Below are positions 565 through 64,000 of a DNA stretch of 64,000 nucleotides, piece by piece. Made by a program: the position numbers and the translations under genes. The stretch lies in contig JAPPGC010000016.1 in NCBI GenBank assembly GCA_028875125.1, forward strand, positions 70,167 to 134,166. The letters run 5' to 3'. The number at the start of each line of letters is the position of its first letter. Position 1 is the stretch's first letter. Under the pieces are notes generated by a model that saw only the letters and a program-made list of their open reading frames with translations, did not search any database and had not been told where the DNA came from. Origin of the DNA: Bacteroidota bacterium (lineage in GTDB: Bacteria; Bacteroidota; Rhodothermia; Rhodothermales; Bin80).

Positions 565-1845
565 CTATACATCTTCTGTTGAAGCCTGTTCCGTTTCAAT
601 GGAGGACGCAGACTCAGTATGGTACATCAAGACTTGGGTCATGAGACGTACTGAGTGACTTAGGGCCCGTTCGTCAACATCAAAGAGAGCATCGTGCAGT
701 GGATAGCCTGTAGATGTGTTGCCGCGCGTGCCAACACGGATTAGCATACCCGGAACAACCGTGAGGTAGTTTGCAAAATCTTCCGCTCCCATACTGGGTA
801 CGCATATATCCAGTGCAGCATCTTTGCCGAATAGATTGTGCACGCAGGTTCGAGTAATCTGGCATAGATTGGGATCGTTGATAACAGCCGGGAGTCCGCC
901 ACGATTGATTAATTCGATCTTTACGCCATGCAGTCGCGCAAAATTCTCGGCAGCGCGCTGCATGTAATTAACCAGGAAAACACGGTCGTTATCATTGAGG
1001 CTGCGCAGTGTGCCCTCGAACGACACCTTGGCGGGAATCACGTTGTGCGCCAGCCCAGCCTCGAGTACACACACAGTAAAAACTGCAGGATTTCGGGGAT
1101 CGGTTATACGCCCAATGAGTTGATAGTACTGATTCAGTAACTGTGTGGCAATCCATACAGTATCCTTTACGTTGTGTGGGCGGGCGGAGTGTCCGGTACT
1201 TGGTGCAGTGACCTCAACGCGGACTCGATCAGATGATGCCGTGACCTGTCCCTCGGGTATCCCAAATTGCCCAACATCAAGCGTTGGGTCCACATGGACG
1301 CAATAGAGAGCTTTCAAAGGGTCGCACACCCCCGCTTCAATCATGGGGATAGAACCGCTGGGATTGCCCTCCTCGTTCGGTTGAAACAAGATTCGCACAC
1401 GCCCTCTTAGGCGGTGCCGGAGTTGATGAAGGTTTAGTGCAACACCAATACCAACTGCTGTGTGTACATCATGCCCGCAGGCATGGGCAACGCCAGTGTT
1501 TCGTGAAGCGTACGCCACGTGTTTGGCGTCTTGCAGCAGTAATGCATCTAGGTCGCAACGAAAACCAATGTGTGGTCCAGGACGCTCACCGTCTATATCC
1601 ACGAACAGTCCGGTCTTTGCATGTGGTCCAGAAACCTGTAAGCCATGACTCTCCAAGTGATCACGTACTAAGCGGCTTGTTGCATATTCTTCGAAGCCGA
1701 TTTCTGGGTTACGGTGCAAATGCCGACGCAGAGCGATCAGGTATTCAACGAAATCTTCGGACAGCCGCTCATTGTCGAATGAGGCAGGAAACGAGTATGT
1801 TGCAGGTACGGCGTCAAGTGTTGACATATTTGGAGGAGTGTCCAA
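565..1845 (-). CDS. M20 family amidohydrolase
   Basis: RRHLHRNPEIGFEE, RCDLDAL, HACGHD, FQPNEE and MGAEDF motifs. Confidence 0.92.
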   Translation of the reverse strand: MDTPPNMSTLDAVPATYSFPASFDNERLSEDFVEYLIALRRHLHRNPEIGFEEYATSRLVRDHLESHGLQVSGPHAKTGLFVDIDGERPGPHIGFRCDLDALLLQDAKHVAYASRNTGVAHACGHDVHTAVGIGVALNLHQLRHRLRGRVRILFQPNEEGNPSGSIPMIEAGVCDPLKALYCVHVDPTLDVGQFGIPEGQVTASSDRVRVEVTAPSTGHSARPHNVKDTVWIATQLLNQYYQLIGRITDPRNPAVFTVCVLEAGLAHNVIPAKVSFEGTLRSLNDNDRVFLVNYMQRAAENFARLHGVKIELINRGGLPAVINDPNLCQITRTCVHNLFGKDAALDICVPSMGAEDFANYLTVVPGMLIRVGTRGNTSTGYPLHDALFDVDERALSHSVRLMTQVLMYHTESASSIETEQASTEDV

Positions 1846-2023
1846 AAACTACGTGGTTATACGCTGTCAGGGTTGCCAAGGTACTTGCGAAAATGAATGT
1901 CCATACGAAAAGTTGCTTCCCAAGAAGGATTCCCTAATTTAGCCAGCAGCAGTTTCCATAACTGGATAACAGAATTTCGGGTACAACAAATGCGATGGTG
2001 ATGATTAATTCTGAGAAAGTTAC

Positions 2024-5000
2024 TCAAAAGCTTGGCTTTAGGTACACATCAACCCGCGCCAGATTCCCTGTACGGCCAAAGAGGGCGGCACTCTCCTCGG
2101 AGGAGAGCGCGAGTTCTGGCCGCTCCTGCGCGTACTTCCCTCGAGTCTCAAGCATCTGTTTTTCAGACAGATGAAAAACAAAAGGGACCTGGCAAAAAGT
2201 AAATGCGAGCATCCCCACATTTAGTTGCAGGGACTCAAGATTGCCGTCAAGGTCATACCAGCTGAATTTTTCTCGGCTTCTGCAAAATTCCGCACTGCGG
2301 AGCAAGGCGGGGTTGATACGGAGAATTCCATTAGTGATTCGAATACCCAGCTCACCCCAGCGACAAAGAATATCTTCCTTAACCTGTCCCGTCAGCCCAG
2401 GTTGTTGTGCTCCGCCCCAACTTGGAGTATGCGAATATGGATCTTGCGGAAAAGCGCCGTACTTGATCGGTGACTGAGTTCCGCCCAGACTATCGCGGAT
2501 TTTATAGTAATGCCGGGCAAGCTCCTTTTGCACGGAAGGCGGTGCATCTGCATCCACAGCATCCCAGAAGGCACCCTGTACTGCCAGAAGCAGTTTGGAA
2601 ATAATATGCCAGTATATACAACCCAAGCCCTCGTACTTAAAGAACCGTCCGGACCGGCCCGTGAAGGATGCATGCCTAAACGTTTTTTCGTACAGTGCCA
2701 AAATGTTTGCTTTATCACGTTCAGCGGATTTAAAGCCCTCATCCCGCAGCACATCCAGCAGATTTGTTAACTCAGCAGCATTTACTAGTGATGGGTTAAA
2801 ATAGTGCTGTCCGTTGGCGGTTCGGGCGATCAGTCGATGATCGTTTTTCTTGATTAATTTTCGTACCAGGGTTAGTCGTACGATATCGTTGGGAGCGATA
2901 CGATTACGAGCGCTAAACGTAGGGAGGTTCTTGTCTGCGTAGAGGAGATAGCTGCCCAGTCGCGTACTGTACAGTGGACTTTTTTCCAAAGCGTTCAGCA
3001 GTGCCAAAGCATCCGTAGCACCAAGCATGCCGGAGGTCAAGGCTGCAATCTGCCCCTCTAACATGAGCGGCAGAGTCTCTATCTGGATAGATCCTGCAGA
3101 GGTTACATGGAGAATCGTATAGGAATGTGCAAGATGATCCTCCTGGATCGCTTGATGGAGTGTCGGGAGAATGGCTTTACTTGCAAGGCTGCAGAATTCG
3201 GCCAGAGTTGAAGCTTCAATTAGTGTCGATCCTTTCTGTATCCCGTGCGCATACAGGTTCGCACGATACCTGGAAGCTGCACGTCCCAGCCCATCCATTG
3301 AGCGGAATTGGGCCGTGGGGTCGTTAATTTCGCCACAGCCTGTCAGCTCATTTTCTACACCACTGCACCAGTCAGCCACTTCTTTGGAAACCCGGTATTG
3401 TATGCCCTCCTGTGCTTCATATAAGTGACCAAGGAACTGCAGGTATCTGTACAAATGGAACAGTGTTACTAGAGAGCATCCCCAGCCGGCAAGTGCATTA
3501 TTAGCATCATTCCATTCAGGGCGCTGCGTGTTTAGCCATATTCCCCCACCAGGCACTAGTGCGCAGAGCTTTGCCAGTGCGGGGACAAGTAATTTTTCCG
3601 CAAGCGTCACAAGAACTGGTTGATCTTCCGGGGTCTGCAGTAATCGGCCGTCGGATCCCATTTTCTCTACACGCTCGGAGATCTGTCCATGCAGATCCCA
3701 GTCAAAATGCACCGAGTTTTTCGGATCAGACAGGATCTGTTCATGTTCAGCCAATCGGTAGGGTACTTGCATATAGCTGAAGATGCGCGTATTTAGCAAC
3801 TGGGCAAGCCCGGTCGGGTCATGTGCGTATGCCCATTCCAAAAGGCAAAGCAAGTAATTGATTTGGTGATCGCCCCAGTACCCAATTGAGGCCCATGGAT
3901 CCGACTCGTCAGGCACTTCCCAGTCTACTCCGCTTCTTCCAATCCGGTAGGGATTGTATCCGTCAGCAGTAGAAGCATTGACGAAAGTTGCGATCATTGC
4001 CGGATAGTAATGGGGAAAGGACCTGCCCAGCGCCTCCCAGTTTTGAAACAAGTCACGCCAGTTTCCGGAGTAGTCCAGTGTCACGTTACCCTTCTCATCG
4101 CGTGTACGGATTTCAAATGCATTCCAGGGACGGCTGGGATCGCCGTGTCGTCTGCTGTATCCGAATGGGAGATATTCAGACAGTAGTCGGCGAAGCTGTG
4201 GATCTTCGGGCTGTGATACCTTGGTCAGATCTATGGTACGAGGCAAGTCCTCCAAATATGAGGACTCGGCAAGTGCATGATTGCGCACACGAATGAAATC
4301 AATCAAATCTTTCTTGTCGGCGAGATATCCGCGAAGCGGGGTGCCTCCCCGCATTACGTTGAATAACGTATTTGCGTAGTGTCGGGAATCATTGGATGTC
4401 AACGCGGTCTGTTGGAAGCCGTCTGCGCTCCCGATTAGAAGGCGAAGGTTTGTAGTATCCTGATGCTCTTGACGACGCAGTGCTCGTACATGCGTCGCCG
4501 AATTTTCCAGTGCCGTGTGCAGCGAGATCAAATCCCCAACATGCTGGTCCACATCCGCGATCAAGTCCCAAGAAGTAGGGCGGTCCTTGACGAGGCGAAG
4601 ACTGCGTTCGATGAAGAAAGCTCCCCGGCGCCCACGGATCCGGTGTTCTGTATTCAGTGGTTGTCCAGCCCTGTAAGCGCTCAATTGCAGTGTGGATAGC
4701 AATATGGATACTGGACGTGGGCCGTGTTGCCAGACCAGTGTGGCGGTTAAGGCTTCCTCCGGGACCGGTTGATCAACTACAAGGGTACTGAGGGAGAAAA
4801 TACCAACCTGTTTCTCCAATTCATTGATCTTGTAAGCATCAACGAGTGTGCTGCGAGAACGCTGCAGTTGTGCGCTGACACCGGGAGGCAGGATATTGCA
4901 GATCCCGTCCAGCACACTGACACGTATAGGTAAATTCCAAACGCTTTCCAGCCGAGCACGCCGTACAAACCCGAAGCCGTCAACGCATTGCCAACTGTAA

Positions 5001-5473: not shown

Positions 5474-6782
5474 GCGCCGCACTTCCTTGGCCATCAATTA
5501 TGTTAACAAATAGTCGGTAGGCACCCGGTTCTGAAGGGGTCTTCAGGTTAACCTGCGCGCCATCTGCATTTGCGAACAGGCCGGGGATCGGTTCTGGCTC
5601 GACTTCGTCATCTCCACCATGGCCAACGGCTGTAGCTTCGGGGCGAACGGTCCAGTAGTAATTTAGCACATCTCCTTCGGGGTCATTCGTGACAACAATA
5701 CTGACGGCATCTGCATCGGGAGACAATTCTATGTTATCGGTGGCTCCCAGGCCATTAAGCGTGAAGGAATCAATTTGGGGGGATCGATTGGCTGGCCAGG
5801 CACCTGTCCATTTGTGGTGCATTACGTCGACCGCAGCCGTTTTGTCTCCATTTGGCATAAACATGCCATACCAAGTAGGTGTGCGTTCCTGCTTTTGTCC
5901 CCACAGAAACACATAGGAGCCAATACACTGAATGGTATCGGATGCAATCACAGCTTCGTATCGCCGATCATACCAGTCTGCTTTTATGGTAGAGTTATTT
6001 TCGATAGGTGCGCCCCAGGAGGTCGTTGCAACCTCCCAGTGTCCGGTGGCGCCCCATTCGGTCACGACATAGGGACCATTCCAATCAGCTTCTTCCAGGT
6101 AACGTGGCAGGTTGATGATATCGGCGTACATCTGAATACCCAGAAGATCTAGGTCCGGGGCACGTGTTTTGATCTGGTCGATCAGTTCAGGGCTGATACC
6201 TGCCAACATCGTTAGCGTAGGATGATTGCCATCAACTTCATGGATCATTTTAGAGATATCATTCACGGCATCCCAGACGAGTGGATTGGTGGCCCCGAGA
6301 TTCAATTCATTCCCGATTCCCCACATGAGCAGGGCGGGGTGATCCTTGTACAGCATAACCTCCTCCCGCACGGCAGTCAGTTGGGCGGCGACAGCTGCCG
6401 AATCACTATAATCAAAATCAAACACTCCCCGTCCGCTTCCTGGGCGCTCCCGTGCGATTTCGATTCCCATGGCCACCATTAGTCCGTTCGCATGCGCACG
6501 ATCCAGGACCTCCATGCCAGTATCCTGCCCATTATCCGTACGCCAGGTACGGAACGAATTACCTCCGTGTTCGGCCAGGGCTTCTACATCCCCAAACTCG
6601 AGGCCGGCCCCATTGATATAGAAAGGAGCATCATCTACATAAAGTTGGTATCGCCCTTCCTCTTGGCGAATCTCCACTTTTTTCGCCTCCTGGTTCTGGT
6701 CTGCTGTTTCTTCCTGCCCGCAACCTATCACCACGAAGAGGAGGATTACAGCGAGGATATAGTGACGTTTTCGATGGTTCAT
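5439..6782 (-). CDS. Lipoprotein glycoside hydrolase, GH-A TIM barrel (GH158/GH2-like endo-beta-1,3-glucanase) with C-terminal Ig-like domain
   Basis: Lipobox VVIGC; GNSFRTW, WGIGNEL (acid/base), TEWG (nucleophile) and QKQERTPTWYG motifs. Confidence 0.75.
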   Translation of the reverse strand: MNHRKRHYILAVILLFVVIGCGQEETADQNQEAKKVEIRQEEGRYQLYVDDAPFYINGAGLEFGDVEALAEHGGNSFRTWRTDNGQDTGMEVLDRAHANGLMVAMGIEIARERPGSGRGVFDFDYSDSAAVAAQLTAVREEVMLYKDHPALLMWGIGNELNLGATNPLVWDAVNDISKMIHEVDGNHPTLTMLAGISPELIDQIKTRAPDLDLLGIQMYADIINLPRYLEEADWNGPYVVTEWGATGHWEVATTSWGAPIENNSTIKADWYDRRYEAVIASDTIQCIGSYVFLWGQKQERTPTWYGMFMPNGDKTAAVDVMHHKWTGAWPANRSPQIDSFTLNGLGATDNIELSPDADAVSIVVTNDPEGDVLNYYWTVRPEATAVGHGGDDEVEPEPIPGLFANADGAQVNLKTPSEPGAYRLFVNIIDGQGSAAHANIPFLVTGE

Positions 6783-8902: not shown

Positions 8903-10516
8903 CTATCCTGATAAAACTTTGGTCTGCGCGTCTGCTTCATTGCCCCGGGCTAAAAGAGATTCCAGTTCTTCAAGTGATCGCCCTTTCGTCTCGGGAAGAG
9001 CAATAATTACAAAAACCAAGCCCATTGCAGCCATAACACCATACAGCAGGAAGGTCAGGGCACTGCCCAGGTTCGCGAGTTCCCATGGGAAGACCAGTTG
9101 CACGGTGAAACTGACGCCCGAGTTGATCAACCCGACAAACGAAATTGCCAAAGCACGCAGACGATTCGGGAAGAGCTCTGAGAACAAAACCCACATAACC
9201 GGCCCGAGAGACACAGCGAAGGACGCGACAAACCCCAGAATACCAATCAGAATGAGAATGGGATTCATGCTGATGGCGGCCGCGATCAACTCGGATTCAA
9301 ATTGTCGCGCGGTAGCAAGCCCCAGTGCAGACTCGAGTGCCTGCTTAAAGGCAACATCAGAGTTGAAGGTTGTATCCAGGATGGGTTGTAGTGCATCCAG
9401 ACTTACTGCTGCGGGCAGGGCTGCGTCTGACGGCAATGTATACGAAGCCCCATGGAATCCGTAAGCCAAGAGTGCCATGGCAACCGTTATGCCTGTGAGT
9501 CCCACAATAAGCAAGGGCTTTCTTCCCAGTCGATCGACTAATGCAATAGCAACAATCGTAAAAACTAGATTGACCAATCCGACCAGTATGGCCTGAACAA
9601 AGGAGGCATTGGTTCCTATGCCCGATTGCTCGAAGATCATGGGAGCGTAAAAGAACACAGCATTGATTCCTGTGATTTGCTGTACAACGGCGATCACAAT
9701 GCCGATGAGCAATACAAATTTCATCGCAGGCGCGAACAGGGCTCCCAGGCCTACATTGGTCTTGGTAGCATCCGAATCCAAACTTGCCTGCACCGCACGC
9801 AGATCCGCTTCTGCTTCCTCAGCTCCGCTTGCCCGGGTCATGATAGCAAGGCCTTCGGAGATACGTCCCTTCATAACAAGCCAGCGTGGACTCTCGGGTA
9901 CGGCAAAGAGTGCACCAAAATAGAGCACTGCCGGCAGGGTCTCGAGACCAAGCATCCAGCGCCAGTTGTATGGACCAAACTTCAGTGATTCAGCCCACGC
10001 AAGGGAGCTATCGCCCAGTTCCAGAATGAGATAATTGGTGAAGAATGCGACTGAGATGCCAATGACGATATTCAACTGGTTGAAGGAGACCATACGTCCA
10101 CGCAGTGCTGGCGGAGAGATTTCCGCGATGTACATCGGAGCAATAATGAGGGATGCTCCCACGCCCAGTCCACCAACCATACGGGCGACGACTAGCAGCA
10201 TATAGTTTGGCGCCAATGCTGAACCAATAGCCGAAACAGCGTAAAGCACTGCTGCCCAATAGAGTACGGTTCGGCGACCTATACGATTACTGAGGGGGCC
10301 TGCCGCCAACATTGCTAGCGTTGAACTCAGTGTCAATGAGCTCACAGCCCACCCAAGCTGAAGATTGGATAGGTCGAATTCCACTTCAATAAAACCGACT
10401 ACTCCAGAAATAACCGAAGCATCGAAGCCCATAAGGAACCCTCCTAGTGCGACAATAAGGGCAGTCCGTGCCACATAAAGATTTTTTATCATCTCCAGAA
10501 AGTTATTGATGCACAA
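8903..10516 (-). CDS. MFS sugar porter (XylE/GalP-like)
   Basis: GGFLMGFD, IGRR, YIAEISP..LRG, PESPRWL, QQITGIN, DRLGRK and PETKG motifs. Confidence 0.95.
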   Translation of the reverse strand: MCINNFLEMIKNLYVARTALIVALGGFLMGFDASVISGVVGFIEVEFDLSNLQLGWAVSSLTLSSTLAMLAAGPLSNRIGRRTVLYWAAVLYAVSAIGSALAPNYMLLVVARMVGGLGVGASLIIAPMYIAEISPPALRGRMVSFNQLNIVIGISVAFFTNYLILELGDSSLAWAESLKFGPYNWRWMLGLETLPAVLYFGALFAVPESPRWLVMKGRISEGLAIMTRASGAEEAEADLRAVQASLDSDATKTNVGLGALFAPAMKFVLLIGIVIAVVQQITGINAVFFYAPMIFEQSGIGTNASFVQAILVGLVNLVFTIVAIALVDRLGRKPLLIVGLTGITVAMALLAYGFHGASYTLPSDAALPAAVSLDALQPILDTTFNSDVAFKQALESALGLATARQFESELIAAAISMNPILILIGILGFVASFAVSLGPVMWVLFSELFPNRLRALAISFVGLINSGVSFTVQLVFPWELANLGSALTFLLYGVMAAMGLVFVIIALPETKGRSLEELESLLARGNEADAQTKVLSG

Positions 10517-58434: not shown

Positions 58435-59148
58435 TTACCACGGTTCAGAATAAAAGTCGTGCACCTCCACTTGCCCACTCCAGTGCCCTGGCATCTCCAC
58501 AACCAGCGTCACGTTATTGGACAGATGAACCATATGTTGTCTCAACAAGAGTGCAAGCCCGGAACACGCACCATCCGCATAATCCATTGCGGAATCCATC
58601 CCCTATCGCCCGCGACCCCGCGCATGTAGGTACGCATTGCAGGTGGAGTATAGTTTGGTGAACTCCGCCTGCGTCAGCCATCCGCCTCGTGGCAGCCTAT
58701 CTATTTCATAGTCACATGGCGGAATATGGTCTTCAGGGTCTGGGTCCACATGCGTGACAATTACAGGTATAGGATACCATTCAGGATTTACCCGCTCTAT
58801 TTCTTTAACTATCCGCCCCGCATTCCATTGCTTTCTGACAATCCGCTTCCGTAGGGTACCGAGGAACGCATCGTGAACCATCACCGACGCAAGCACCATC
58901 GATTCACAGATCATTCTCAGCATTAGGTAGCAGAGACTAACGTCCGCTAAGGAATCACCCGTCAAGGATTTGCCCGACTGCCACTCCCGGACGCACTGCC
59001 TCGCCAAAGCACCCATCCGCATCACATCCCGCATATGACGTTCGTAGCGGATTATTGACCACCGTGGATCAGGTTGGGGATCTCCATCCGGGCCGTCGAA
59101 GAAACTATTCACGGGGCTTATCGAAGTACGTCCGCTCAATTCGTGCAC
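58435..59148 (-). pseudogene. Hypothetical protein interrupted by one in-frame TAG (58605-58603)
   Basis: The ORF 59148-58603 continues in the same frame for 55 more sense codons (GMDSAMDYADGACSGLALLLRQHMVHLSNNVTLVVEMPGHWSGQVEVHDFYSEPW) to TAA at 58437-58435. Confidence 0.6.
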
Positions 59149-59169: not shown

Positions 59170-60024
59170 TCAGGTGCTTTTCATGAATTGGAGCTTCTTG
59201 CGCAGTACCTGCTCAAACTCCCGGCGGCTTACTGGCTTGGCAGCCAGTAACTTCTCACAAGACGCCTCTAATGTGAGCACCTCCCAGTGCCTGCGAATAA
59301 GCTTGCCATCACGCAGTTCTGGAATAAGCCAGATTACGTCACCATCATCAAGGTCGTGACTTGGGTTCGCAGAAGGTCCTCCCATAGAATCAAAGAAAGG
59401 CATGTCTACGGCAACTGCAATCTTGGAATGCCATCGGCGCAGTGTGGGTCCCTTAACTTGTAACTGGGGCATCAGGCGCTTCGCACTTGACGACCTCCAA
59501 TCTGGACGGCGTTTGCCCAAGGGGTACGGCGGGCGATTTCTATCGGACTTTTGCAGAGCTATAAACTCCTTGCTCATCCTATCACCAGAGAAGTAGACCG
59601 CCTGAATTTCAAGACCAAACCATTTCAACTCATGCTGATCAGCAGCAAGTATTAAGTCTATCTTGCCGGCAGGTCTCTGAGTGACTACGCTCTGCATAAA
59701 TGGTACTTCCCGTGCAAGCTGAAGATCCTGCGGGCGAAATCCTACAATTTCCCCCAGCCACTGCACCAGCATAGTGTCCTGCTCAAAACGATTGGGACAG
59801 ACAATCACTGGCGGACCCTCGAAAGTAGAAATCTCTCCATTGTCCTCGATATAAGACCGCAAGGAACATACGCCGCCTCGCTTATTGCAGGTTATGGGTC
59901 GGAATGGGCAATGCGGAACACTGTCCTGTTCACCAAGGGCGATGGAGGCGAGGCGTTGGCGTTCTTTTGGGGTTAGCGTCAGAAAATCTTGGCCGTACCA
60001 CTCCGCAATTCCATAACGACTCAT
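59170..60024 (-). CDS. NotI-family restriction endonuclease-like protein
   Basis: EWYG, CPF..C.K.GGVCS..CPNRF four-Cys metal site, ID...EIQAVYFSG and RPDWRSS.AKRL.PQL..KG motifs. Confidence 0.85.
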   Translation of the reverse strand: MSRYGIAEWYGQDFLTLTPKERQRLASIALGEQDSVPHCPFRPITCNKRGGVCSLRSYIEDNGEISTFEGPPVIVCPNRFEQDTMLVQWLGEIVGFRPQDLQLAREVPFMQSVVTQRPAGKIDLILAADQHELKWFGLEIQAVYFSGDRMSKEFIALQKSDRNRPPYPLGKRRPDWRSSSAKRLMPQLQVKGPTLRRWHSKIAVAVDMPFFDSMGGPSANPSHDLDDGDVIWLIPELRDGKLIRRHWEVLTLEASCEKLLAAKPVSRREFEQVLRKKLQFMKST

Positions 60025-60974
60025 GTGAAGACTTTGCGTCGTGTGATGAGCAGTTCTGGAATCTTGAGATGGTGGCCACTTTTCATTTCAATGCTGGCTC
60101 CATGAAAATTATATTGAGCCACTAAATCCATGATCTCTGAGGAGCAATCATAGGTCATCAGGAAGTCCGACTCGCACCCCGCCAACGCCTCAAAGATACG
60201 TGCGTGATCAACATTGCTGTGGGTATAGAGCCTTGACCCCGCCCTCTTGCCTCCTGATGCAGTGTAAGGTGGATCAATGAAGAATCTCGCACCAGGTTCA
60301 CCACACTTTTCTTCCATGAATAGAACACCGTCTCCCTCAAAAAAGCGTATTCTTCCAGACCATTTAGCGATGTCTTCAATCCTGCGGACGAGAGTCTCAG
60401 GATACCATCTGGACTTCACCCCGGCACCGTTCTCGCCACTCCGAACAAGAGCTGCTCCTGCTGCAAGCACACCGCCCCGCCGCGTACGATTAAGGATCAG
60501 CGTACGGAAACCTCTATCAATAGTTGAATTCGGATCCTGACAGATAATTTGTTCAACGGATTCCCGTGTTGGGGAAAACGCTCGAATGCGCGCTACAAGC
60601 TCCGTTGGATTTTCCATTACCGCGCGCCAAAAAGCCGCCACATCCCGGTCTAACTCTACCATTGCCGCGCATGTTACCAATTCTTCCATCACTGCAGTCA
60701 GCGACACAATCGCTCCACCTGCAAATGGCTCAACCAAGAACCCACCTCGGGCGTCCAACCATCTTCGGATGTGGGGCACGAGCCACGTTTTCCCGCCAGG
60801 GTAACGCAATGGGCTTCGCTGTGGCACGGAAGCTACATTGGCCGCTGGAATGCTTGACTTTTGAAAGCGGGCGGGAGTCGGAAGGAGGCTATGGCTAGGA
60901 ATGACGTGCCTTCCAGAATCAGACGGATTCGCCTGCGGTATTACCCCTGCCACTTCGGTTGTAGCCACACTCAT
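60021..60974 (-). CDS. DNA adenine methyltransferase (Dam / D12-class, alpha group)
   Basis: SPLRYPGGK, EPFAGG SAM-binding motif and catalytic DPPY; stop overlaps the REase start. Start taken at ATG 60974 (ORF track 61187). Confidence 0.92.
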   Translation of the reverse strand: MSVATTEVAGVIPQANPSDSGRHVIPSHSLLPTPARFQKSSIPAANVASVPQRSPLRYPGGKTWLVPHIRRWLDARGGFLVEPFAGGAIVSLTAVMEELVTCAAMVELDRDVAAFWRAVMENPTELVARIRAFSPTRESVEQIICQDPNSTIDRGFRTLILNRTRRGGVLAAGAALVRSGENGAGVKSRWYPETLVRRIEDIAKWSGRIRFFEGDGVLFMEEKCGEPGARFFIDPPYTASGGKRAGSRLYTHSNVDHARIFEALAGCESDFLMTYDCSSEIMDLVAQYNFHGASIEMKSGHHLKIPELLITRRKVFT

Positions 60975-61371
60975 GCTGTCATCCTGAATTATTCTCAGCG
61001 GGTGCAGATGCGTACCCCAAGTTACGCAATTCCGGAGACTTAGTTTGTTCCGTTTATCTGCAAAAACCACTTTAACAGAAATGGCCACGATTTCGTTGAA
61101 ACGAATACGTGTCAGGGCTACGCAGGGTGATGGGCTTCTGCAGGACCATTCTGAGCGCCTACAGCGTACTACGATGCGATCAGACACAATCCATCGAAAA
61201 CTAGAGCATCCAAGAAGGGCCTTAGTGGCGGTTCAGGTATGACAACTCATGCCCCAATAGCAGTTTCTGCGACGCGACGCATCTCTACGTATTGTATGGC
61301 TTCACTACTCACTGGCCATCATAGTATATGGATGTGCTGGACAATCTGAGTTCCACACCTCCGCTATGAGA

Positions 61372-62376
61372 TCAAGCGTGAGATGGCGCATCGCCAAAAT
61401 TCGCTGAGATTCGGGAAGCAAGGCGCGATTTTAGTTCCTCAGGTGTGTTCCAGAAGATACATGGATACTGTTGGATGTCAAAATGCATCTTTCCCGGTGA
61501 ATTCTTACTGCAAGTAAAAATAACTGGTATGTCGAGCCCATGAGCAAAGCCAGCTTCATAGTAAACGCTTCCACGCGTGTCACCCGTTATCGTACCATCC
61601 TCTGCTCTGCCGACCTCTCCTTCGGTTAAGTCCACAACCACGAATTTCGATCTCCGAATTTCGGCGATGATCTGGTCGTCAATTTTGTTCAAACGTTCTG
61701 ACTGTTTAATACGCTTTGCAGAATAACCACATTTCTCTATTCCAGGCTTAATCCCCTGATAGAATGCATCATCAAGCGATGGATCAAACCACATCGCTAC
61801 GAATGCTTGCATTGAATCTACGATTCGGTTTCCCGATTTAGCAAGGTGAACATGTCCGTTTGCTGTCAGAATGCAGCGCTCGGTTACAGACATCACTTTT
61901 GGTGGAGAAGTGATCAGATTCTGATCTTCCAGAAACCTGAGTAGATATTCCACGTCGTTGACTTTAGTCGAACCCGACCAAGCAAGTATTTTTGCATAGT
62001 GTACCCACTTTGGATCATTTTCTTCGAGGTTTTGCGGTTTATAAGGGATCCTGAAGACATCGCCAATGCTGGAAAGCTGTGAGCTGATATACTTAAAGAG
62101 ATTTTCAGCTCGCTGGAAAACAGACGGATGACGAATGGAGTTAATCTCCATAGAATCCGAAATCGTCGGCTGAGCATCTCCCATTGAACGCTGGTTAACG
62201 AGCCAAGAAGTGACTAACATTCTTTGCTCTTCGCTCCAATCTCCTGCCATCGCAGCCCGCGTCTCAGTGATAGTGTATCTCCCGCCTGTGCGAGGAGACT
62301 TAACTCTGAGTGAACCGTTTTGAAGCTTTGTAACTTTGGCGGGGGTTCCCCAAATTGGGCATGTATTCTCCTCCAT
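61372..62376 (-). CDS. Protein with winged-helix-like middle region and C-terminal nucleoside 2-deoxyribosyltransferase/TIR-like domain
   Basis: AFVAMWFD, KIDDQIIAEIRRS.FVVVD.T, RGSVYYEAGFAHGL..PVI and HFDIQQY motifs. Confidence 0.75.
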   Translation of the reverse strand: MEENTCPIWGTPAKVTKLQNGSLRVKSPRTGGRYTITETRAAMAGDWSEEQRMLVTSWLVNQRSMGDAQPTISDSMEINSIRHPSVFQRAENLFKYISSQLSSIGDVFRIPYKPQNLEENDPKWVHYAKILAWSGSTKVNDVEYLLRFLEDQNLITSPPKVMSVTERCILTANGHVHLAKSGNRIVDSMQAFVAMWFDPSLDDAFYQGIKPGIEKCGYSAKRIKQSERLNKIDDQIIAEIRRSKFVVVDLTEGEVGRAEDGTITGDTRGSVYYEAGFAHGLDIPVIFTCSKNSPGKMHFDIQQYPCIFWNTPEELKSRLASRISANFGDAPSHA

Positions 62377-62465
62377 GTGTTATAAACAAGTAAGTTGAAG
62401 TTGACACAAATGGCAATCTTGCTGCCTGTAAAACCTGACAGGCCAGTTGAAAGATCGGGCTTATA

Positions 62466-62499
62466 AAGAGTTCCAATAAATATCATTATAGGAACTCTT
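62466..62499. other. Candidate lox/FRT/dif-type recombination site (13-8-13)
   Basis: AAGAGTTCCAATA-AATATCAT-TATAGGAACTCTT; arms match 12/13 as inverted repeats; 25 bp upstream of the recombinase ATG. Confidence 0.7.
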
Positions 62500-62524
62500 T
62501 TTGTCTTGAATTGTCACACTGAAA

Positions 62525-63496
62525 ATGGACAACACATTAACTCCCGATTCTCTCCGCAGCCGTGGTCTGGGGTCTGTTTCCTCCTCTGCCCAGCGACTCA
62601 TCCAGGCAAGCGTCAGCGAGAACACCAAGGTCACTTATGACCACGTCCTCTCCAAGTTGGAGGAATGGCTGGGAGGGCGGGCACTTGCGGACGCCCTCTT
62701 GTCCGAGTATCTCACGTCTTGCCACGATCAGGGCATGGCTCCCGCGAGCATCGCGCTGATTCCGGCAGCTGTCCGTTTCGCGGCGCGGCTTGTCGGTGAC
62801 AATGCGCCAATCGGTCCTCTCTCGGAGCGAACCCTGGCAGGCATTCGTCGGGAAGGACGACAGCGCGGACGCGGGCAGGCCACGGGTATTACCTTTACCG
62901 AGACTAAATTCCTTGTGGGGCAGATCGCAAAACATGGTGTCCGGGGCATCCGGGATGCTGCGCTGTTCTCACTAATGAGCGACTGTATGCTGCGCATCAG
63001 CGAATTGGTCGCTGTCAGACCCGCCGACATTGAGGCTGTTCCAGATGAGTCTGGCCGCCTCTACATCGCCCAAAGCAAGACGGATCAGGAAGGCTCGGGG
63101 GCAACACTCTATATCGGTCCGCCCACCATGGAGCGAATCCATGAATGGACCCACTTAATTATAGAACAACTTGGGGACGTTGAGAGCGATAAGCCACTTT
63201 TTAGATCTGTGTGGAGGGGCGGCCACATTCAAACGAAAGGCATAAGTGGACGCGGGGTCCGTAAAAACCTGAAAGCCTATGTGGATGAGGCCGGGCTGCG
63301 AGGACAATACAGGGGACATTCATTCCGTGTTGGAACTGCGCAGAGTCTCGCCCAAAGGGGGGCAACCCTCACGCAGATGCAAACTGTCGGGCGCTGGCAG
63401 ACGGCCCGGATGCCGGCCGCATACTGTCGGAATGAGCTTGCGGGGAGGAATGCCGTCGCAACGTTGCTGTATAAGAATGAGATGGAGCCCAATTAG
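62525..63496 (+). CDS. Cre-like tyrosine recombinase
   Basis: N-terminal SAM-like binding domain; catalytic R (LRISE), K (SKTDQ), HxxR (GHSFRVG), W (GRW) and Y (AAY). Confidence 0.93.
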   Translation: MDNTLTPDSLRSRGLGSVSSSAQRLIQASVSENTKVTYDHVLSKLEEWLGGRALADALLSEYLTSCHDQGMAPASIALIPAAVRFAARLVGDNAPIGPLSERTLAGIRREGRQRGRGQATGITFTETKFLVGQIAKHGVRGIRDAALFSLMSDCMLRISELVAVRPADIEAVPDESGRLYIAQSKTDQEGSGATLYIGPPTMERIHEWTHLIIEQLGDVESDKPLFRSVWRGGHIQTKGISGRGVRKNLKAYVDEAGLRGQYRGHSFRVGTAQSLAQRGATLTQMQTVGRWQTARMPAAYCRNELAGRNAVATLLYKNEMEPN

Positions 63497-64000
63497 GACT
63501 GGAATGATGCCCCATTACTTTGACCCGCCTGTCCCTCTCAATCGCTGAGCGGAGCTCGGTAGTGCACTGAACGCACAAGAGCACTAGGTTTAGTCCCGCG
63601 CCCCCGCCATAGTCTCCATGCGATGTGATTGGACGGACACCTTTGTGTCATCAAGAGGCGGAAATCAAGGGGAACGGCTCCAACCAGTCCTTCTGATTCT
63701 TTCCAAATCACAGTTGATCGTGCTTAGACCCGATCTTTCGAAAATTAGAAGGGGCCTAAAGCCGGAATTGCGGCGGTAGGGGCCTGACTGAGCCGGCCCA
63801 ATCCCATTTTATCAGCGTGAATTCTTCAACCGTTACAATCGCCCGCTGTACACCTGATCTGCTCTCGAAAGGGGAAGCTCGTGTCGCATTTTTCCGTGGT
63901 TGTTCAGATGTTCCATCGGGTATCAGATATGCGAGGTGTGCTGGCATGGCGCGTCAACACTCTAACTGTTGACATAATTTTGGCCAGTGTTATTGTTCGA

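Follow-up and report, generated by a model that had tools for sequence, protein, structure and literature searches.

A Cre-like tyrosine recombinase with a putative cognate palindromic site in a sponge-symbiont Rhodothermales genome

In a 64,000-nucleotide (nt) stretch of DNA from a Rhodothermales bacterium (hereafter the window; positions 70167-134166 of contig C54 in a 3.3-Mb genome of 129 contigs), we found a gene for an intact tyrosine recombinase, R1, that lies directly behind a 36-nt palindrome. Sequence comparison indicates that this is probably an uncharacterised Cre-like recombinase with a putative cognate palindromic site, and we lean towards the palindrome being the core recombination site of R1. 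We do so because the palindrome is conserved in the nearest relative, upstream palindromes are enriched across the recombinase family, arm sequence tracks recombinase lineage, related sites recur in the genus and homology between genomes breaks at such sites. The locus has three parts:

62525..63496, forward strand: R1, an intact Cre-like tyrosine recombinase of 323 amino acids, with catalytic residues R157, K185, H265, R268, W291 and Y300.
62465..62500, no strand assigned: 36-nt palindromic site, made up of arm AAAGAGTTCCAATAA, asymmetric spacer ATATCA and arm TTATAGGAACTCTTT, with 14 of 15 arm positions paired.
62501..62524, forward strand: 24-nt leader between the site and the R1 start codon, kept in the orthologue by alignment.

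The recombinase R1 and the palindrome before its gene

R1 is an intact Cre-like simple tyrosine recombinase under purifying selection, as judged from its profile match, its sequence and fold matches to Cre, its catalytic residues and its substitution pattern. The translated open reading frame carries the motifs SKTDQ, GHSFRVG and GRW, and matched the tyrosine recombinase superfamily profile PF00589 at 52 bits (E = 9e-14; cut-off 27.1). Scores against the XerC and XerD models were far below their cut-offs (TIGR02224, 51 bits against 335; TIGR02225, 44.8 bits against 329.6). Cre chains and Cre variants were the sole PDB sequences matched below E = 1e-5 (best E = 2e-7), in an alignment that passes through LRISE, SKT, GHSFRVG, GRW and AAYCRN. 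The catalytic residues of Cre are numbered R173, K201, H289, R292, W315 and Y324 in the excerpted text of PMC10250229; in R1, R157, K185, H265, R268 and W291 are invariant among 28 aligned relatives and Y300 is present in at least 90% of them. An AlphaFold model of R1 (mean confidence, pLDDT, 76.4; C-terminus poorly modelled) returned Cre or Tre at Foldseek ranks 1 to about 33, with E values of 1e-14 to 1e-9, template modelling scores of 0.5-0.6 and 19-20% identity, and XerA, IntI, Tn1549 Int, XerD and XerH at lower ranks (1e-7 to 1e-5). R1 is thus nearest to Cre by both sequence and fold, with the two-domain clamp and no arm-binding domain. Between R1 and its 94% identical orthologue, the ratio of nonsynonymous to synonymous substitution rates (dN/dS) was 0.19. 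The original prediction had noted Cre-type motifs in a 323-residue recombinase; the full catalytic set, with Cre as the nearest solved relative, bears this out.

An inverted-repeat search resolved the palindrome into two 15-nt arms (62465-62479 and 62486-62500) that are 93% complementary and stand 6 nt apart. The near-palindrome first reported just before the recombinase ATG, read as 13-8-13 (62466-62499; one mismatch; 25 nt to the ATG), is thus this element, recovered here in 15-6-15 form. A chance origin of the palindrome is excluded. None of 200 shuffles of the upstream 160 nt attained its score, and the whole 3.3-Mb genome holds three 15-6-15 repeats with at least 14 of 15 positions paired, against 0.14 expected. 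The remaining two (both 14/15) are one GC-rich repeat, at C1:2668-2703 and C83:13768-13803. In a scan of the genome with a half-site matrix built from related sites in the genus, the window site was the top match at 37.9 bits, and matches below 18 bits were no better than in a reversed-sequence control. The suggested check for additional arm copies found none above chance in the window or the genome, which contains one full site and one orphan hybrid site (on contig C52). No comparable palindrome lies upstream of the paralogue R2 or of a broken third recombinase copy (C32:35959-36584) that has internal stop codons and a frame change. A scan of 62300-62600 found no sigma-70-type promoter. The putative 10-nt identity of the right arm with the yeast FRT site, noted in the original prediction, was given no weight, R1 not being Flp-like.

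Relatives of R1 and their palindromes

The nearest relative of the locus, L002 in a Rhodothermaceae metagenome-assembled genome (MAG), encodes proteins 94% and 95% identical to R1 and R2. Its site, AAAGGGTTCCAATAA-TTGCCA-TTATTGGAACCCTTT, also lies 24 nt from the ATG. Relative to the window, the left arm has an A-to-G change and the right arm the mirroring T-to-C, the window's single arm mismatch is absent, and three of the six spacer bases differ; the L002 site is perfect as 15-6-15 and even as 16-4-16. Further away, a different palindrome (14-6-14) lies 55 nt upstream in L007 (62% identical), and the one in L006 (52%) is related but degenerate. The closest database relatives of R1 are P0002-P0005 (ENA), at 95-75% identity.

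The family is large: 850 database proteins reached E <= 1e-5 among 8000 candidates scored, and 420 stretches in species-representative genomes encode relatives. The 78 loci kept from these came nearly all from sponge- or coral-symbiont MAGs, many of which name a sponge or coral as their sample, and often with several copies per genome. At least seven phyla are represented, the taxa including Rhodothermales, Poribacteria, Acidobacteriota, Latescibacterota, Dadabacteria/Thermodesulfobacteriota, Gammaproteobacteria and Gemmatimonadota. Among 2.9 million viral contigs we found two relatives, both distant; plasmid relatives were at most 33% identical, and a metagenome scan returned nothing closer than 62%. 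One side observation concerns three of these loci (L030, L031 and L032), which are identical recombinase copies at a 9605-nt spacing on OY760735.1, a 23.1-kb record, labelled chromosome 2, from a Vicinamibacterales MAG; the record resembles a circular element of about 9.6 kb that was assembled head to tail.

We counted upstream palindromes in 113 family genes with distinct upstream regions, drawn from 157 loci of the species-representative genomes and the metagenome scan, with the window excluded. Of the 113, 18 had an inverted repeat that paired at 10/12 positions or more across a 6-nt gap and lay no further than 150 nt from the ATG, against about 2.3 expected from the remainder of these loci (0.020 per window). 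Even gaps were also raised, reflecting the same palindromes read wider or narrower, and odd gaps were not enriched. We then aligned 26 sites that had been selected as palindromes. TAA-N6-TTA is nearly invariant among them, and 13 of the 15 arm pairs change on both sides, giving 83 double-change cells against 31 in shuffles (0 of 500 as high). Comparison across the family favours the dif-like 15-6-15 geometry for the putative site over 13-8-13. With increasing protein identity, arm identity climbs faster than spacer identity: arms were 0.72 identical (spacers 0.42) at 60-80% protein identity, and 0.83 above 80%.

Within the genus, we scanned 24 genomes for the inner 10 nt of each arm, allowing up to two mismatches. 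The 24 forward matches compare with 16 in a reversed control, so that the pattern overall is little above noise; 11 matches have no or one mismatch. Thirteen sites were kept for the matrix and for a count of the outer arms, leaving out four two-mismatch matches inside long open reading frames (L119, L122, L127 and L129), and in 9 of the 13 the outer 5 nt, which lie outside the pattern, are also fully paired. No site match was found in 11 of the 24 genomes, several of them complete. The R1 family is matched at E = 1e-20 in 19 genomes, in many cases with internal stop codons, and is absent from five, four of which also lack sites. All eight genomes with a good site have a family recombinase, in one case just a pseudogene, although these numbers are small and the genomes are kin. 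The sites are solitary, lying far apart in complete relatives, and are flanked by genes for AAA_28 ATPases, STAND/AAA_16 nucleoside triphosphatases, HepT/DUF4145, AbiU2 and AbiJ_NTD4 proteins, DDE and IS110 transposases, family recombinases, and homologues of P334, the protein encoded divergently from R1. In L004, from a complete Rhodothermales genome, an AbiJ_NTD4-domain gene (L004:4530-5780, the same as L123:1612-2859) separates the site from the R1 homologue; this gene contains a HEPN-like RHxxxxH stretch and is followed by a 12-10-12 inverted repeat.

Some genus sites are hybrids of one good and one foreign arm (L116, L108, L125 and the host's own contig C52). A second class of sites, with spacers GGACCG or GGGACG, shorter arms and fixed asymmetric flanks, accompanies a second recombinase lineage, whose two members are 81% identical to each other and 36-38% to R1. 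One genome carries three second-class sites with an identical spacer in a repeat of about 110 nt, and just one of them adjoins a recombinase. The orphan hybrid on C52 (C52:20973-21008; spacer CGTCCC) belongs to this class and has no recombinase nearby; its homology to another genome is a 44-nt island comprising just the site, which is there flanked by a recombinase and an AbiU2 gene. Targeting of the site by insertion sequences was considered and rejected: where related transposase genes adjoin two of the sites, their homology begins only some 390-420 nt away, and no common point of insertion at the site was found.

Taken as sequence comparison, these observations favour the proposal that R1 and the palindrome form an uncharacterised recombinase/target pair, through the mirrored change in L002, the family enrichment and a site class that follows recombinase lineage. 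The proposed check for a co-varying palindrome upstream of homologues had a mixed outcome, with the mirrored L002 change and the enrichment on one side and 95 of 113 genes lacking such a palindrome on the other. By analogy with Cre/loxP and Xer/dif, we infer binding, cleavage positions, reaction outcome and autoregulation as follows. One R1 monomer would bind each 15-bp arm and two bound sites would synapse; Tyr300 would cleave at the borders of the 6-bp asymmetric spacer, and strands would be exchanged through a Holliday junction. Since the genome has a single full site, the likely substrates would be two copies of this site, carried either by replicated or dimeric DNA or by incoming circular DNA. 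With only 24 nt separating the site from the ATG, bound R1 would probably also dampen transcription of its own gene.

Neighbouring genes, breakpoints and rival explanations

The features around the locus are the following:

61372..62376, reverse strand: P334, a 334-residue TIR/nucleoside 2-deoxyribosyltransferase-like protein of defence type.
62377..62464, reverse strand: 5' region of P334, conserved among P334 and its homologues as far as the border of the site.
60021-61187, reverse strand: D12-class adenine methyltransferase, by profile match; neighbouring cargo.
59170-60024, reverse strand: NotI-family restriction endonuclease, by profile match; neighbouring cargo.
63990..64000, reverse strand: 3' end of R2, a convergent paralogue of 321 amino acids, 40% identical to R1.
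C54:135677-135907, past the window: divergent ribbon-helix-helix gene (76 amino acids; PF12651).

P334 matches plasmid genes annotated as nucleoside 2-deoxyribosyltransferases and, weakly, a PADLOC TIR effector; plasmids of Pseudomonas and Xanthomonas gave no match, and the gene found at this position in L002 is unrelated to it. In three other genomes, P334 homologues (53-66% identical) each have a related site 91-94 nt ahead of their start codon, with a recombinase on the opposite side in some and absent in others. P334 forms a small genus family (L108, L116, L004 and L111) with a conserved 5' region of about 90 nt that ends at a palindromic site, and the family is found in at least four different contexts. 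Beyond P334, the NotI-family endonuclease and D12 methyltransferase genes have 4 nt in common; a further match of the methyltransferase is to the PADLOC model PD-Lambda-5_B (E = 2e-44), and a 181-residue open reading frame at 58603-59148 has no family match. The idea that the site serves to excise or resolve this adjacent restriction-modification cargo found no support, since the genome holds one full site and a second sample has the locus in the same arrangement. Profiles run on the neighbours revealed no Tn3-family transposase, and none of 23 relatives has a syntenic left flank.

To the right of R1 the flank is mostly unique and ends in a 55-nt repeat. R2 continues past the window (C54:134156-135121; dN/dS 0.24). 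Upstream of it are three tandem 11-nt direct repeats, TGTTNCNNTAT (L080:9207-9239, that is C54:135207-135239), with a fourth copy in the L002-type organism, seen as an insertion in run X10. These repeats are iteron-like and may be a candidate binding site for the ribbon-helix-helix protein or for R2. The contig extends just 2.4 kb beyond the window, and its final 55 nt (L080:10519-10573) have 100% identical copies on C33, C112 and C14 and in relatives; this repeat probably stopped the assembly there.

The tail of C54 and L002 share a single 3277-nt block of homology (91%), which begins at the first palindrome base and ends with the stop codon of the ribbon-helix-helix gene, and the same L002-type junctions occur in a sponge-metagenome contig from another run (X10). 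R2 and the ribbon-helix-helix gene are found without R1 in another genus genome (72% nucleotide identity; block positions 1574-3268), which makes the block a composite of separable units. Between two Poribacteria loci, L069 and L075, homology is confined to 991 nt (87%), which extend from the outer palindrome base to about 10 nt past the stop codon. An insertion-sequence-type transposase gene abuts the site in L002, and the 3' edge in L069 abuts a dispersed 34-nt repeat (L069:5027-5060), so secondary events may explain part of these outer-edge breaks. The 34-nt repeat recurs dozens of times in Poribacteria G038 and G042, in places regularly spaced (for example, 228 nt). The crossover point cannot be fixed from the breakpoint data. 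Contigs of a second sample (X2) have the same arrangement as the window, and contig X7 has low-depth joints from 6552 to 6636 and from 9911 to 10322 (L080 coordinates), which we leave uninterpreted.

Several observations weigh against the palindrome being the recombination site of R1. Among its eight closest genomic relatives, only L002 and L007 have a clear upstream palindrome; L003, L005, L008 and L020 have none upstream, and in L004 the site is 1.6 kb away. Across the family, 95 of 113 genes lack such a palindrome within 150 nt upstream. The 85% pairing at the 26 aligned sites (35-45% in slid controls) is partly circular, the sites having been picked as palindromes, and its informative part is the arm diversity that stays symmetric. 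In a Mantel test of the link between arm identity and protein identity, 31 of 2000 permutations attained the observed value, and kinship inflates this test. The inner arm GTTCCAATAA is common in the genus to recombinase lineages only 36-38% identical. Just one full site is present in the genome, the C52 orphan having a different spacer, and most genus sites lie between divergent genes, an arrangement that would also fit an operator. The window/L002 and L069/L075 homologies break at the outer edge of the palindrome and not in the spacer, with no second site after the gene, which a simple central crossover into a target would not predict. Finally, contigs from other sequencing runs, aligned to the locus, contained no recombination product and no joint at the palindrome; this check used assembled contigs alone, which drop rare variants.

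Some of these points fit a reading that we judge unlikely, in which the palindrome is an operator alone, bound by R1 or another dimeric regulator over divergent R1 and P334 promoters, with no strand exchange. The site lies 24 nt before the R1 ATG and 88 nt before the divergent start codon, most genus sites are likewise placed between divergently transcribed genes, the window's genome contains just one site, the contigs contain no recombination junction, and symmetric co-variation would suit any dimeric binder. An operator is, however, harder to reconcile with the Poribacteria loci, where the minimal conserved unit is the site and the recombinase gene alone, so that the recombinase itself would remain the binder. 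Hybrid and orphan sites, homology islands (44-110 nt) of hardly more than the site, and breaks at the site point to DNA exchange and not to regulation alone, and a 6-bp spacer flanked by TAA and TTA matches core recombination sites.

The breakpoints themselves could instead mean that the site forms one end of a small mobile unit and that DNA is joined to its outer edge, perhaps through an attC-like single-strand hairpin, and not by a central crossover. Homology in window/L002 and L069/L075 does start at the outermost palindrome base, the unit stops just after the stop codon without a second site, and homology of the P334 unit ends just short of the same edge (62448-62460 by BLAST), although the adjoining arm is still related in alignment. 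Yet there are just two such pairs; in one the transposase gene beside the L002 site may have caused the break, and in the other the right edge abuts the genome-wide 34-nt repeat. Hybrid sites suggest exchange inside the site, and an attC-type hairpin holds two recombinase-binding boxes, for which a 15-bp stem is too short. We therefore consider outer-edge joining very improbable.

There is only a very slight chance that the palindrome is a structural or host element unrelated to R1 (a terminator or RNA-stability hairpin, a repetitive extragenic palindrome-like repeat or a dif-like site of the host Xer system): the T run TTTTTG directly after the right arm, the dif-like ATAA-N6-TTAT core, better XerD-like host genes on C88 and C35 and the site-carrying repeat of about 110 nt, present three times in one relative, are outweighed by the lack of any gene ending beside the site on either strand, a terminator scan of 62300-62600 that called only a small, distinct hairpin (62412-62426), arm mismatches without wobble bias (17 GT/TG and 17 AC/CA of 79, which speaks against a strand-specific RNA hairpin), arm sequence conserved beyond pairing, the 11 of 24 genus genomes without a site match, which a chromosomal dif would not allow, the partial loss of site conservation among genomes retaining the host Xer genes, and the absence of sites from four of the five genomes without a family recombinase.

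Comparison with known recombination systems

R1 resembles the recombinases of the Cre/loxP, Dre/rox, Vika/vox, Panto/pox, Nigri/nox and YR series in size (323 amino acids), in its catalytic set R-K-H-R-W-Y and in having no arm-binding domain and, as in these Cre-type pairs, a palindrome with an asymmetric spacer adjoins its gene. It differs in being just about 19-20% identical to Cre, and comparison across its family favours sites with 15-bp arms, a 6-bp spacer and a conserved TAA/TTA over the 13-8-13 layout. Moreover, Cre belongs to phage P1, whereas R1 is chromosomal in a sponge symbiont, in a family that is multicopy and often decayed. A published search for Cre-type pairs looked for palindromes within 1 kb of the gene, and about half of the pairs tested were validated (excerpts of PMC10250229); the window site would pass that search as excerpted there (arms 13-15, spacer 8, up to two mismatches), and looking beside the gene, as the original prediction did, is thus accepted practice.

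With single-recombinase Xer systems (XerS/difSL, XerH/difH and archaeal XerA/dif, as described in excerpts of PMC2731167 and PMC5357621), R1 shares a gene-linked near-palindrome, a 6-bp spacer and the ATAA-N6-TTAT core. It differs from them in scoring far below the Xer cut-offs, in that gene and site are missing from many genus genomes, and in that its family's sites occur in several copies in variable, defence-rich contexts. The geometry of the site is dif-like, and the protein is Cre-like. We rejected a chromosome-dimer Xer/dif system on the score of 51 against 335 bits, the better Xer proteins encoded on C88 and C35, and the absence of the site pattern from 11 and of the R1 family from 5 of 24 genomes. 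The pdif modules of Acinetobacter plasmids (PMC6449649 and PMC10132070, in excerpt) similarly place dif-like sites by accessory, toxin and defence genes, with module reassortment and insertion sequences nearby. Here, by contrast, the sites are solitary and palindromic and come with a dedicated Cre-like recombinase, not host XerC/XerD; a dif-module type was rejected, with no second site flanking cargo in the window or contig and relatives' sites lying far apart.

The original prediction had also named a TnpS-type resolvase as a fallback. TnpS/TnpT of Tn4651-type elements share with our locus a Cre-like recombinase of about 323 residues divergent from a gene of about 330 residues, with inverted repeats between them. 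This fallback was not supported: P334 is TIR/nucleoside-deoxyribosyltransferase-like and absent from the orthologous locus, it has no Pseudomonas or Xanthomonas plasmid match, no Tn3 transposase was found among the scanned neighbours, and the best plasmid recombinases are just 33% identical to R1. An integron was rejected as well, with one full and one orphan hybrid site in the genome, IntI below Cre in the fold ranking and solitary sites in relatives. A narrow literature search found no description of the R1 family by title or abstract, and otherwise returned Cre-type tool papers only.

If R1 recombines the 36-bp site, this would be a new pair whose recombinase has only about 20% identity to Cre and whose target differs in its arms and has a 6-bp spacer. 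The two would then be a candidate orthogonal tool for genome engineering, and the family would supply many natural arm and spacer variants. Because units and solitary sites adjoin defence and mobile genes, and breakpoints coincide with the sites, comparison of these genomes suggests that the family may reshuffle gene modules at them. A broader model, which we put forward tentatively and hold to be rather doubtful, is that the R1 family and its palindromes are a gene-module exchange system of sponge- and coral-symbiont bacteria, neither an integron nor driven by Xer; solitary lox/dif-type sites before anti-phage, transposase and recombinase genes would be docking or swap points, through which defence genes might be reshuffled within genomes and passed between phyla sharing one host. 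As its sites lie beside defence genes, this very large family may be one route of anti-phage gene exchange in such communities.

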